A stretch of DNA of 64,000 nucleotides from a virus: IMG/VR virus record IMGVR_UViG_3300045988_122383, positions 24,896 through 88,895 of that record; one strand, written 5' to 3'. The notes beneath the pieces were generated by a model. That model worked only from the letters and a program-made list of their open reading frames with translations. It was not told the origin of the DNA and made no database searches. How positions within the stretch are numbered: position 1 is the stretch's first letter; every line of letters begins with the position of its first letter. The position numbers and the translations under genes were made by a program. This document shows positions 33,117-36,818 of this stretch, in pieces.

Positions 33117-33887
33117 TTAATCATCCAACTCCATTCCTGCCTCGATCCACATGCCAGATATAAATTTAGGCATTGGAGCAAGTTTAAATACATTCTTCTC
33201 ATGCATCTCGTCAATGATCTGTCTCACTGCTTCATCTTTACATACTCCAGTTCTCAGATATTCGTCTAACATATCATATGTAAATCCAAGATTATCTTCA
33301 TCTGTCTTACCGCATAATCCATCAGTAGGTGTTTTTTCGATTAACTCTGTTGGAAGTCCCAGAACTCTACCAATTGCTTTAACTTCTGTCACAGTCAGAT
33401 CACTTAATGGACTAAAATCTCCGGCTGAATCTCCATATCTTGTTGCATATCCGACCCAATCTTCAGATAAATTACATGTATTTGCTACTCTTCCATTCAT
33501 ACTCTGTGCAAAAGCATACAATGTAGCCATTCGGATACGAGCAGGTAAATTTGTGGCACTCTGTTTACTCCATTTACCGCCTAATTCATCTCTGATTTCA
33601 TGTTTAATATCTCTGCAAGCATTAAAAATATTAACTGTGTAATGTTCAATTCCTAGATGATCACATAGCATCTGAGAATACTCAATATCACTCTGCACAC
33701 CCTGTGGCATCATAATTCCAATAACTCGATCTTTACCTAGTGCTTCGACACATAAGGCAGCGACAACTGATGAATCTTTACCGCCTGAAATTCCTACAAC
33801 GGCATTACACCATCTTCCATTAACTTTAAACCAATCTCTAATCCACTGTACTAATCTGTCTTTGGTTTCTGCTGCATTAAAACTCAT
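33117..33887 (-). CDS. nadE: NH3-dependent NAD+ synthetase.
   Basis: PP-loop GISGGKDSSVVAALC. The ORF is 256 aa. Confidence 0.8.
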   Translation of the reverse strand: MSFNAAETKDRLVQWIRDWFKVNGRWCNAVVGISGGKDSSVVAALCVEALGKDRVIGIMMPQGVQSDIEYSQMLCDHLGIEHYTVNIFNACRDIKHEIRDELGGKWSKQSATNLPARIRMATLYAFAQSMNGRVANTCNLSEDWVGYATRYGDSAGDFSPLSDLTVTEVKAIGRVLGLPTELIEKTPTDGLCGKTDEDNLGFTYDMLDEYLRTGVCKDEAVRQIIDEMHEKNVFKLAPMPKFISGMWIEAGMELDD

Positions 33888-33904
33888 GTTTTATGTCTCC
33901 TTTC

Positions 33905-35374
33905 TTAAAATTCTCCTTCATTTAAAACTCTTCTAATTTCCTGTAATGACTGTTCTTTTACCAATTTGCCATCTCTAAATACTGTCTCAAGCAGATTATT
34001 CATTGGAAGATTTTCTGAAGTATATCCATCTTTAAATGTCAATTTACCGTCTGATCCTGTATAGACATGACATAAACCTCTCTGAGATTTCTTAAATCCG
34101 CCATCTTTTGGATTCTTGAAAATTGGATATGGTTTGCCATCAATCTCACAATACGTTGCTTTAATACAACTGCTAAATGTATCTCTTGTAAATGGTTTTA
34201 AAACTCCATCTTCTTCGATGCACTGGAATGAGAATGATCCAACGCCAAGTGCAACATTGCTTGCTGCGAATCCATTTTTCTCTAAAATGTCATAAATCTG
34301 CTCACATCTCTGCACTGTAATTGAATCTCCGTAAATTGCTTTTACATGAGGATCTAATACTTTATATCCTTTACTATTCGTAGTTCCGCCAAACTCTTCC
34401 CATAACTTGAATACCGTTCTGGTTACTACATCTACACAATCTCCTGAATCCCCTCTTACAAGAAAACATCCATTGTGATTCATAATCTCATTCTTGAGTT
34501 TTGGAAGAATATTCTCTACAACGTTCCAATAATCATATGAATCCAATACTGCGGAGAAGCTTGTGTTTCGATAAATCTCTGTAAGTAATCTTTTAATCAG
34601 AGTCTCTTCATCTCCGTCAATCGCATAATTACTACACGCAACCGAATGTTCCGTTGACGGGCTACCAAAAGCAACTGGTTCTTTCGTACAATCACAGTTA
34701 TAATTTCTCTCTAAATATGGAATTGTTGGAACTGTTGCTGTATTTAAGAATGATAAACACCATCCTGCCCCTGCTTTAACCGCAGACTGTAAACATTCTT
34801 CGCCACGAAAATCGAAAGCCCCTAATGCTTTAGATTTTGGAATATCGTCATCACAAGTCATTTCATAAAACTTATTAACGATCTGTCTATATGTATGCCC
34901 GACAGTTGCAGCGATCATCGGATGCCACATTTCTGCGGAAATTAAGCTTTCTAATGCCTGTGGCAACCATGCAAAATCTTTATGTGTATTCTCAATACTA
35001 AACATCGGCACATGCATTGGTACTAAAGTTCCTTCAGGAAGAGCCTTAATCTCAATTGGAAGATAGCCAAGATCATATAAATCTTCGATTTTCTGTAATC
35101 CATATGCACCTTCTCCAAGGGCTGCATCCATTACTGTCTTATAAGTGCCAATTGCTTTATTTCTATATTCAAAGAAAAAATACTCATTAAAATAATCGAC
35201 CAAATACTCTTTAATGAATCCTTGTAATCCAAACATGGCTACTTCATTCCATCGTTTTACTCTGCTCATACGTGGAGTAAAATAAGAAACAGATTTTGTA
35301 ATACCTTTTGGTAACATTTCAGCATGAACTGCTTTGTAAAAATCAATTAATAACATTGGGTTTGTCTGTTTCAT
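33905..35374 (-). CDS. Nicotinamide phosphoribosyltransferase family protein (NadV/NAMPT-like, or a Namat-like homolog).
   Basis: 489 aa with LLIDFYKAVH, LPIEIKALPEGTLVPMHVPMFSIENT and KGYKVLDPHVKAIYGDSI, which align with conserved NAMPT blocks. It overlaps the upstream Prs-like gene by 4 nt. Confidence 0.8.
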   Translation of the reverse strand: MKQTNPMLLIDFYKAVHAEMLPKGITKSVSYFTPRMSRVKRWNEVAMFGLQGFIKEYLVDYFNEYFFFEYRNKAIGTYKTVMDAALGEGAYGLQKIEDLYDLGYLPIEIKALPEGTLVPMHVPMFSIENTHKDFAWLPQALESLISAEMWHPMIAATVGHTYRQIVNKFYEMTCDDDIPKSKALGAFDFRGEECLQSAVKAGAGWCLSFLNTATVPTIPYLERNYNCDCTKEPVAFGSPSTEHSVACSNYAIDGDEETLIKRLLTEIYRNTSFSAVLDSYDYWNVVENILPKLKNEIMNHNGCFLVRGDSGDCVDVVTRTVFKLWEEFGGTTNSKGYKVLDPHVKAIYGDSITVQRCEQIYDILEKNGFAASNVALGVGSFSFQCIEEDGVLKPFTRDTFSSCIKATYCEIDGKPYPIFKNPKDGGFKKSQRGLCHVYTGSDGKLTFKDGYTSENLPMNNLLETVFRDGKLVKEQSLQEIRRVLNEGEF

Positions 35375-36207
35375 AAATCTAACACCTCAACTTTCTCATG
35401 CTCTTTGGTAAAAATACTACGTGTCGTATACACTTTTTTAAACAAACTATCTTCCTTTAATAATTCGCCATCAAGAATTGTATTTTCACAGTGACTAACA
35501 TATAAATACATATCTTTACAACCGTATTTGTTTAATTCTTTTGATCCATAATAGAATGTGCCACCCTTACTACAAATATCATCAATCATAAGGATTGCCG
35601 TATTTTCGTCTAATTTATCTGTATCTCCATGAATCTCAATACCAAGAATTTCTCCTGTCTTCCAATCACGATTTTTAATTCCATAGACAATCGGATAATC
35701 ATCTGATACAAATTCAGAATATCTTTTTAGTGATCCGCTATCTGGGAAATAAATTACAAGATTTCTTGATGGTTCTGCTTTAAGGACTTTGCTACAAGTT
35801 TGTGTAATATATGATGCTCCACGGATTACTTCTACATGATCAATCAATGCAGTAGATACATCGGAATGTGGATCAGTTACAATAACTCTTACAAATCCAA
35901 GACTATTAATAATTTCTGCAAAATATTTTAATGTAAAGCATTCACTTGGCTCTTTTACTCTGTCAAATCTTGCATTTGGTATATACGGCATCACTAATGC
36001 TTGTTGTAACCACGGAAAATGTTCTTTAATATTTTTAGAAATACACAACAAGGAAAACAACTCTTTATCTGACTCATATAACCATGTGATATACACTGTC
36101 TTGTTTTCTATGATTTCTTGAGATATCACACCTAACGGTAAATCAATCTTCTGTGTTCCGTCTGGGAAAGCCTCTGGAACAACTGGTACATCACCAATGC
36201 TAATCAT
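35371..36207 (-). CDS. Ribose-phosphate pyrophosphokinase-like protein (Prs family, or an Adps-like homolog).
   Basis: Phosphoribosyltransferase-type loop ILMIDDICSKGGT. At 278 aa it is shorter than housekeeping Prs. Confidence 0.6.
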   Translation of the reverse strand: MISIGDVPVVPEAFPDGTQKIDLPLGVISQEIIENKTVYITWLYESDKELFSLLCISKNIKEHFPWLQQALVMPYIPNARFDRVKEPSECFTLKYFAEIINSLGFVRVIVTDPHSDVSTALIDHVEVIRGASYITQTCSKVLKAEPSRNLVIYFPDSGSLKRYSEFVSDDYPIVYGIKNRDWKTGEILGIEIHGDTDKLDENTAILMIDDICSKGGTFYYGSKELNKYGCKDMYLYVSHCENTILDGELLKEDSLFKKVYTTRSIFTKEHEKVEVLDL

Positions 36208-36221
36208 CCTTCATCACTCCT

Positions 36222-36818
36222 TTACTCATTGATTACTTCAATCTGGCACATCTTCATTGCTTCGAGTGCATTCTTGTGACTCTCTGGTGTTACACCTGCA
36301 CAACACGATGCATCTACAAGAATCTTTGCCTCTGGCAACGTTGCTTTTAGCAACATTGCATTTGAGATTACACAAATATCTGTACAAAGACCAATTAAGG
36401 TAATTTCAACATCTTCTGGATGAGACCTACCATCTTCACCGAATTCATCAGAACAATCGTCCATAAGTTCTAATGACCCAAATGTTTCTTTACAATAGTT
36501 CTCAAGAAGCCAAATAGCATTTTCTTGCTTGTCATTGCGACAAAACATCTCTGACGATAATAATGCCTTTCTAACTTCTTCATTTAAATGCCACCCATCT
36601 TCTCCGCAGATGCAATGCTTTACTGGAAGATTCTTTCCTTCCTGTGTAGATAAATAATTTTCATCGTGTGTGTCCATTGTTGCAACAATAATGCCATCAA
36701 AATTTTTAATTTTCTCAATTACTTTGGGAACAATTTCCTGTGCTTCTTTGGTTCCAAGGCTTCCGTCGATAAAATCATTCTGCATATCGACGACAACCAA
36801 TAATTTATTAACGTCCAT
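36222..36818 (-). CDS. Isochorismatase-family cysteine hydrolase (nicotinamidase PncA-like).
   Basis: VVVDMQNDF ... conserved Lys ... GLCTDICV catalytic Cys pattern. The ORF is 198 aa. Confidence 0.6.
   Translation of the reverse strand: MDVNKLLVVVDMQNDFIDGSLGTKEAQEIVPKVIEKIKNFDGIIVATMDTHDENYLSTQEGKNLPVKHCICGEDGWHLNEEVRKALLSSEMFCRNDKQENAIWLLENYCKETFGSLELMDDCSDEFGEDGRSHPEDVEITLIGLCTDICVISNAMLLKATLPEAKILVDASCCAGVTPESHKNALEAMKMCQIEVINE

Follow-up and report, generated by a model that had tools for sequence, protein, structure and literature searches.

Genes at the locus

The 64,000-nt stretch of virus record IMGVR_UViG_3300045988_122383 considered here (the window) belongs to a large gut-phage genome of about 160 kb, and every absence reported for the window covers these 64 kb. 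It carries four contiguous minus-strand genes for a PncA-type amidase, a Prs homologue resembling the phage enzyme Adps, a variant of the transferase Namat and the NAD synthetase NadE (Table 1). An earlier sequence-only reading had placed this set at 33117-36818, and open reading frame (ORF) calls and profile searches bear out both its coordinates and its families; the motifs that it quoted (VVVDMQNDF, GLCTDICV, ILMIDDICSKGGT and GISGGKDSSVV) are all found in the translations. The spacing of the four genes is operon-like, with a 14-nt gap after the amidase gene, a 4-nt overlap by which the Adps-like gene, directly upstream, runs into the Namat-like gene (as that reading had also described for its 278-aa Prs-like and 489-aa NAMPT-like genes) and a 17-nt gap before NadE, which is followed after 2 nt by a 110-aa ORF. 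This arrangement is not chance: in more than 140 related loci these genes are again found together.

Adps and Namat together make up NARP1, a phage system for NAD+ reconstitution with experimentally shown anti-defence activity (Osterman et al., bioRxiv 10.1101/2024.02.11.579819). We regard it as about evenly balanced whether the operon encodes a deamidated form of NARP1, in which nicotinate and ADP-ribose pyrophosphate (ADPR-PP) would be joined to deamido-NAD (NaAD) and this would then be converted to NAD+, all of these substrates and products being predicted from sequence.

Table 1. Positions of the operon genes, of two diagnostic sites in the Namat-like gene and of the adjoining ORF in the window
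Feature	Position	Strand	Length	Remarks
PncA-type nicotinamidase, isochorismatase family	36222-36818	minus	198 aa	
Adps-type Prs homologue	35371-36207	minus	278 aa	
Namat-family ADP-ribosyl/phosphoribosyl transferase variant	33905-35374	minus	489 aa	
Ala213 codon, equivalent to Namat Asp215 / human NAMPT Asp219	34736-34738	minus		reads LNTATVP; HMMER and MAFFT alignments
9-residue insertion IEEDGVLKP in the Namat 'selectivity clamp' helix motif	34193-34219	minus		GSFSFQC-IEEDGVLKP-FTRD vs GSFTYQY-NTRD in SpbetaL1
Single-domain ammonia-type NAD synthetase NadE	33117-33887	minus	256 aa	
ORF adjoining NadE, outside the conserved module	32782-33114	minus	110 aa	phrog_20678

The Namat-like protein and its nicotinamide pocket

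The Namat-like protein matches phrog_448 at 523 bits, together with PF04095 and PF18127, and among solved structures it is closest to SpbetaL1 Namat (9w5x/9w5w, E 5e-113, 381 bits), with human NAMPT at 173 bits. Its AlphaFold2 model, with a mean predicted local distance difference test (pLDDT) score of 94.1, reaches a TM-score of 0.91-0.93 to Namat, 0.89 to bacterial NadV and 0.85 to mammalian NAMPT. As such, bit scores, fold and the tree described below all group it with Namat, not NadV, in agreement with the sequence-only reading. The models for NAPRT (PncB) were not matched (TIGR01513, 21 vs 297 bits; NF006415, 18 vs 243), and NF006629, named 'nicotinate phosphoribosyltransferase' by NCBI, was reached (429 vs 405). 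We take the latter as a NadV/NAMPT-type family model, since Pfam, PHROG, sequence and fold all place the protein with NAMPT/Namat.

In SpbetaL1 Namat, D215 hydrogen-bonds nicotinamide (PMC12774641); the equivalent D219 of human NAMPT binds the nicotinamide amide and sets specificity, and the corresponding residue of human NAPRT is Ser (PMC4442680, PMC7096376). This nicotinamide-binding Asp is absent from the window protein, which reads LSFLNTATVP where SpbetaL1 Namat has LSFTGTDTIP. Further changes lie on the amide side, where A242, G213 and H187 of SpbetaL1 Namat become S240, N211 and G185. When pocket columns were compared between 55 non-Asp and 176 Asp-type family members, the most discriminating ones included D215 to A/S/V, H187 to G/S/C, A242 to S (54 of 55), S239 to G and G213 to K/N. 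D215 and A242 have been published as nicotinamide-pocket residues; H187 is two positions away from F189, and G213 two from D215. A change of S190 to D was discarded as a clade marker, as it is seen in 5 of the 55 non-Asp members. The window protein retains the Nampt-like core residues D13', Y15', F189, R192, H245, R306 and D308, as do 52-55 of the 55 non-Asp members. Because the stacking, ribose-phosphate and catalytic residues are thus unchanged, the enzyme looks active, with the amide-recognition side alone apparently rebuilt (G-T-D...A to N-T-A...S).

The 'selectivity clamp' also differs, and motif alignments were used for it because residue numbers from the hidden Markov model (HMM) are unreliable past about 320 (insert states). 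R38 (R40 in SpbetaL1 Namat) and F381 (F392) are kept, and position 7 (Y396) is Cys, followed by a 9-residue insertion. This insertion (residues 386-394) is modelled by AlphaFold2 as a beta-hairpin with strands 385-388 and 391-394 and pLDDT above 90. It is found in most of the non-Asp clade and is lacking in basal members such as phAss-1; phAss-1, P0144, P0155 and P0177 keep the canonical clamp motif, for example GAYTYQYVTRD in phAss-1. The insertion was rejected as a requirement for association with PncA and NadE, since phAss-1, L085 and L086 are insertion-free yet combine Ala215 with both genes. Elsewhere in the family, many representatives of 550-1100 aa (P0123, P0140, P0157, P0163, P0194 and others) align in two or three stretches with a break near query residue 318, which suggests large insertions at one hot spot, perhaps inteins or extra domains.

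Linkage of pocket type to PncA and NadE

Profile HMMs for PncA, Adps, Namat and NadE were run on 243 loci in four sets, with up to 8 kb of flank per side. The first set comprised 80 loci from viral contigs and one GenBank record near the window (48-100% Namat identity); all have Ala or Ser at position 215, and 70 encode both PncA and NadE, the rest being mostly cut contigs. The second, another 80 loci from viral contigs, is the sample unbiased to closeness to the window: its members are 33-42% identical to the query, apart from two phAss-like contigs at 95% and 65%. It was fetched with a mixed alignment, and single-protein scans of viral contigs by the distant P0177 and P0158 gave no useful matches. 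Both genes accompany all three Ala loci of this set and both are absent from all 77 Asp/Glu loci, even at E<=1. The third set consisted of 80 bacterial genome contigs, all with Ala, of which 67 have PncA and NadE and 8 PncA only. Three reference loci formed the fourth: SpbetaL1 and FADO have Asp and neither gene, whereas phAss-1 has Ala and both.

Taken together, the 164 non-Asp loci, all with Ala, Ser or Val at position 215 and all members of one clade nested in canonical Namat, comprise 141 with both genes, 12 with PncA only, 8 with NadE only and 3 with neither, many of the incomplete ones being cut contigs; neither PncA nor NadE occurs in any of the 79 Asp/Glu loci. The HMM probably missed a NadE in at least one 'PncA only' locus: in L207 a 648-aa ORF occupies the NadE position, and its N-terminus and length, read by eye, suggest a long glutamine-type NadE. 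The linkage persists where the gene order is changed to Adps-Namat-NadE-PncA (L001, L111), and likewise on a different phage backbone, that of phAss-1, a siphovirus with a recoded stop codon (genetic code 15). Four canonical-type NARP1 loci (L116, L150, L151, L153) have Glu for Asp at 215 (G-S-E), none of them with PncA or NadE.

In a neighbour-joining tree of 160 family members, built without support values, the 54 non-Asp proteins form one clade that accounts for a single Fitch change. A repeated origin of the non-Asp state was therefore rejected. When the tree is rooted on a Nampt-like sequence, the clade lies 12 nodes deep in canonical Namat, and SpbetaL1 Namat falls in its sister group.

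The Adps-like Prs homologue

The partner of the transferase matches phrog_619 at 224 bits and TIGR01251 at 87 bits, under the 113-bit cut-off of that model; the characterised Adps enzymes from SpbetaL1, FADO and ICP1 likewise stay under the cut-off, at 96-106 bits. The proposal that it groups with Adps, not with housekeeping Prs, is upheld by this shared distance, and its short C-terminus also agrees with Adps. Residues F18, R87, H121, D161, K185, D212, D213 and F221 of ICP1 Adps, with roles assigned in the Adps structure paper (PMC13586617), are kept in the alignment. The catalytic Lys (ICP1 K185, SpbetaL1 K162) and the acceptor residues R87, H121, D161, D212 and D213 are invariant there and at least 97% conserved in 218 homologues, although they also occur in Prs and so are no proof of ADP-ribose specificity. 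The Adps-like and Namat-like genes are conserved as a pair in more than 200 loci.

The PncA-type amidase and NadE

The amidase matches PF00857 (Isochorismatase) with an E-value of 4.7e-18, and its best solved relatives are nicotinamidases (1ilw/1im5, 29iv, 2wt9). Its D49, H51 and H68 align with the D-x-H...H-C motif of the Pyrococcus horikoshii nicotinamidase, which we take to be the PncA metal site. An Asp-His-His metal site separates nicotinamidases from other isochorismatase-family hydrolases. Among 138 distinct homologues, D11, D49, H51, H68, K110 and C149 are at least 97% conserved, and the PncA-type D/K/C pattern read from the sequence earlier (D11/K110/C149) is thereby confirmed. The NCBIfam PncA equivalog model NF008623 is matched below its cut-off (30.6 vs 174 bits) and by the N-terminal part alone. 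The amidase is thus, on sequence, a divergent PncA member.

NadE scores 190 bits on TIGR00552, well over the cut-off of 63.65, and matches PF02540 (E 3.5e-57). Its closest solved relative is the NH3-dependent NadE of P. horikoshii (2e18), and the second is 3fiu, which we take to be a Francisella NadE that prefers nicotinate mononucleotide (NaMN). The SGGxDS loop is conserved among 138 homologues, so that the assignment as NadE with the PP-loop GISGGKDSSVV holds, and a glutaminase domain is absent from its 256 aa. NadE occurs in 50 phage records. The single-domain archaeal NadE of M. jannaschii is NaAD-specific (PMC3376133).

Chromosomal copies in gut Clostridia

The sequence-only reading had seen an 'expanded' phage operon, and a phage-specific expansion did not hold, as the same four genes with an NrtR-like regulator are common in chromosomes of gut Clostridia. 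The best 80 matches in species-representative bacterial genomes (66-79% Namat identity) come from gut and rumen Clostridia, mainly Lachnospiraceae, Ruminococcus, Oscillospiraceae and Acetatifactor, and none of these loci has the phage marker genes that flank the operon in the window. Two of them run into genes named from their N-terminal sequences, asd-/dapA-like in L207 (an isolate of Pseudoruminococcus massiliensis) and rpsB-/tsf-like in L240. From these chromosomal contexts and the absent phage markers it follows that, in the likely host group, the module is a chromosomal operon for NAD salvage or recycling.

In 62 of the 80 bacterial loci (L165-L244), PncA-Adps-Namat-NadE is followed by an NrtR-like gene, for example at L198:9457-10437 and L207:11431-12321. 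It is of the Nudix type, matches NF050029 at 162 bits, under the cut-off of that model, and is a homologue of the ADP-ribose-responsive repressor NrtR, which suggests ADP-ribose-responsive control of the chromosomal operon. The phage probably shares the module with Clostridia by transfer.

Accessory genes of related operons

A gene matching PF01661 (Macro domain) lies between Namat and NadE in related operons, with 17 inserts recovered by ORF clustering; the window itself has no Macro gene. The domain is that of Adpp, the ADPR-1''-phosphate phosphatase which, in NARP1-AP, answers the aRES defence (bioRxiv 10.64898/2026.01.28.702374).

A small gene resembling haloacid dehalogenases (HAD) is common to related operons and canonical NARP1 operons. 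Its product is about 130 aa long, contains the HAD-type DxDxT motif (VDFDDT) and has no Pfam match, and the gene stands directly between or beside Adps and Namat in about 12 of 80 diverse canonical NARP1 loci (L091, L097, L099, L109, L112, L117, L119, L120, L147, L149, L150 and L152), where it is about as frequent as Macro-domain Adpp. It is also found in 17 loci of the first set and at L083:5784-6203 (phAss-1), and in relatives of the window it lies between Namat and NadE. The preprint on aRES and Adpp does not mention this protein, which by its motif and position may be a second NARP1-associated phosphatase. A third phosphatase type occupies the slot between Namat and NadE in one bacterial locus, L241:2959-3528, where a histidine-phosphatase-family gene (PF00300, E 1.4e-45) is found.

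Proposed pathway and alternative explanations

The proposed route would begin where NAD+ has been cleaved to ADP-ribose and nicotinamide. The PncA-type amidase would turn nicotinamide into nicotinate and free ammonia, and the Adps homologue would pyrophosphorylate ADP-ribose with ATP to ADPR-PP. The Namat variant, with its remodelled amide site, would then combine nicotinate and ADPR-PP directly to NaAD, from which ammonia-dependent NadE would form NAD+ with ATP and NH3. The product of the transferase should be deamidated because NadE makes sense only then. A deamidated route had been suggested from the sequence alone, and it is now directly supported by two sequence findings that this suggestion did not include: the Asp is replaced, and its replacement tracks PncA and NadE over 243 loci. 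The chemistry is still an inference and the route is not proven.

The most substantial alternative, in our judgement rather unlikely, is a Preiss-Handler-like mononucleotide route in which the Prs homologue would make phosphoribosyl pyrophosphate (PRPP) and the NAMPT-family enzyme would convert nicotinate and PRPP to NaMN in place of PncB. Host NadD would then make NaAD and NadE would finish the pathway, with PncA supplying nicotinate, so that the operon would be an ordinary niacin salvage operon borrowed from hosts. The pocket changes and the PncA/NadE linkage fit this equally well, and canonical Namat also accepts PRPP in vitro. The chromosomal copies in Clostridia lie beside an NrtR-like NAD-regulon repressor, and L207 has the putative long NadE. 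However, the partner enzyme is as distant from Prs models as characterised Adps, the clade is nested in canonical Namat and derived from it, the adenine-clamp motif is preserved in basal members of the clade, the Macro-domain, Adpp-like gene of related operons would have no role and no adenylyltransferase motif was found in the window. The HAD-like gene shared with canonical NARP1 operons points in the same direction, as does the homologue of ADP-ribose-responsive NrtR that follows the chromosomal copies. The ADPR-PP route is for these reasons favoured over the PRPP route.

Several observations nevertheless weigh against the ADPR-PP route, or against how much the linkage can say for it. In the window subclade, the change of the clamp residue Y396 to Cys and the 9-residue hairpin speak for PRPP, and the preference for ADPR-PP may be weakened there. 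A non-Asp viral locus without PncA (L042:10246-10833) has a NadM-like nicotinamide-nucleotide adenylyltransferase directly after NadE, which fits the mononucleotide route and hints that some variants use a mononucleotide intermediate. The second solved relative of the window's NadE is the presumably NaMN-preferring Francisella enzyme. The route costs one ATP more than NARP1, with an unexplained advantage. Moreover, the co-occurrence of pocket type, PncA and NadE is one old, stable trait of one clade and not a series of independent events, because the state changed a single time, and the neighbour-joining tree that gives this result has no support values.

It is improbable that the operon holds two independent add-ons, with Adps and Namat running standard nicotinamide NARP1 while PncA and NadE boost host Preiss-Handler flux in parallel. 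All four enzymes do belong to NAD metabolism, host PncB and NadD would be available, and each family is known singly in other phages, as with the 50 phage records of NadE. Such a combination would give no reason why precisely the clade that bears PncA and NadE has lost the Asp and has changed at three pocket residues near it, nor why neither gene occurs among the 79 Asp/Glu loci; PncA would also compete with Namat for nicotinamide. We give similarly little credence to a general host-derived metabolic module that raises NAD+ for replication, for instance for the NAD-dependent ligase which the phage encodes, and that was not selected by NAD+-depleting immunity. The same operon does occur in bacterial chromosomes under an NrtR-like regulator, but canonical NARP1 is experimentally anti-defence and related operons acquired Adpp-like Macro genes, a known answer to aRES defence; this explanation is in any case compatible with the deamidated ADPR-PP route and not exclusive of it. 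In the phage, the module probably keeps NAD+ available during infection, and by analogy with NARP1 we infer that it may be used against NAD+-depleting defences.

Comparison with known systems

The operon resembles NARP1 in that an Adps-type gene lies directly upstream of, and overlaps, a Namat-family gene, in that the catalytic residues of both are kept and in that the transferase matches SpbetaL1 Namat best by both sequence and fold, with the clade nested in canonical Namat. It differs in the replacement of Asp215 by Ala, the changes at A242, G213 and H187, the clamp hairpin with Y396 to Cys, the four-gene composition with PncA and NadE, and the predicted substrate (nicotinate) and product (deamido-NAD). 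Strictly, the operon falls outside NARP1, because its transferase lacks the nicotinamide-binding Asp that defines the system. As in NARP1-AP, NARP1 appears here enlarged by accessory genes, and relatives of the window carry the Macro gene between Namat and NadE; the additions in the window are on the pyridine side (an amidase and an amidating synthetase), not on the ADP-ribose side.

NARP2 consists of KVP40 Nampt and Nmnat, and NARP3 of PnuC and NadR (PMC13464706). Both share with the window operon the phage-encoded restoration of NAD+, but the window has no adenylyltransferase, transporter or NadR, and its transferase is of the Namat and not the Nampt type. NARP3 was considered as a prior description of the operon and rejected, as PnuC and NadR are unrelated. 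The bacterial Preiss-Handler pathway (PncA, PncB, NadD, NadE) likewise starts with PncA, ends with NadE and has deamidated intermediates, whereas here a Namat-family enzyme and Adps would take over from PncB and NadD. Adps-Namat pairs exist and work in bacteria, for example in Paenibacillus foliorum, where they are described with nicotinamide (PMC12774641); unlike these NARP1 homologues, the Clostridia operons are non-Asp and have PncA, NadE and an NrtR-like regulator. A full-text search, outside which most subscription journals lie, found no paper in which NadE, PncA, nicotinamidase or nicotinic acid is connected with Namat or NARP1. A nicotinamidase is listed in the phAss-1 paper, without analysis of the cluster.

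Genomic surroundings and host

Outside the operon, the window spans the replication region of a large phage; of the 52 ORFs with 150 aa or more, 49 are on the minus strand. Encoded here are a DnaE-type polymerase, a RecJ-like protein, a RecD2-like helicase, two Bro-N proteins and one integrase-family protein, and the NAD-dependent DNA ligase noted earlier is present at 2-1858 (PF01653, 167 bits). The 110-aa ORF beside NadE is restricted to 29 close relatives and has a homologue with a precomputed PF27390 match. The operon had been read as continuing into flotillin and PspA-like genes. The flotillin gene is there (31256-32716; PF01145, PF15975), and the PspA-like assignment of the 244-aa coiled-coil protein is tentative: it has no Pfam match at E<0.01, and a homologue has a weak precomputed PspA_IM30 match. 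As module members both were rejected, since they are confined to close relatives and, in some of these, exchanged for other genes. The whole region 3' of the operon (30507-32716), occupied by these two genes in the window, varies among close relatives; in an Anaerostipes-associated contig (L246:9035-13470) the genes are a P-type ATPase, a vWA/TerF-like protein and TerD, followed by a coiled-coil protein with a weak PspA_IM30 match.

Upstream of the operon, a perfect GC-rich hairpin with a 14-bp stem (37337-37368) lies between the stop codon of a 129-aa ORF and the ribosome-binding site of a 155-aa ORF; it has no T-run on the coding (minus) strand and so is not a standard terminator. The 129-aa protein (37375-37764; phrog_2018) travels together with a 689-aa protein (37787-39856; phrog_1735; a homologue has a precomputed DUF8224 match), and the pair is found near the NAD module in the divergent lineages L001, L041, L056 and L074-L079, sometimes on its opposite side.

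Compared at the nucleotide level with 50,697 phage records, the region gave a single 65-nt match and no close cultured relative. A Namat at least 97% identical to that of the window occurs in 28 IMG/VR contigs, many of them 90-170 kb long. The gene order of the window recurs on a 35-kb contig from the Anaerostipes sp. Marseille-Q3525 assembly, and the phage host is therefore probably a Lachnospiraceae bacterium. In L002-L029, where Namat is 97-100% identical, PncA identity to the window (35371-36818) ranges from 63 to 100% and that of Adps from 70 to 99%, an unevenness that points to allele recombination inside the module.

Implications

It is possible, at slightly less than even probability, that the Namat variant catalyses an undescribed reaction, nicotinate plus ADPR-PP to deamido-NAD. 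Together with PncA, Adps and NadE it would then make up a whole 'deamido-NARP1' pathway for recycling both products of NAD+ cleavage. Many gut Clostridia would use this pathway for housekeeping, with NrtR-like control, and unrelated phages would have acquired it on at least two occasions. If so, there would be a new enzymatic reaction in NAD metabolism and a further NAD+ reconstitution route in the arms race between phages and bacteria. Similarly, a simple sequence rule at the pyridine pocket, G-T-D...A vs x-T-A/S...S, would separate nicotinamide-type from nicotinate-type Namat proteins, which are now labelled alike in databases. Even if the PRPP alternative were true, the operon would still reveal a NAMPT-family enzyme that had turned to nicotinate as its substrate and taken the place of PncB. 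The prediction is open to direct test with four purifiable enzymes and three point mutations. Beyond viral counter-defence, NARP1-like chemistry may be a normal, regulated form of NAD salvage in abundant gut Firmicutes.

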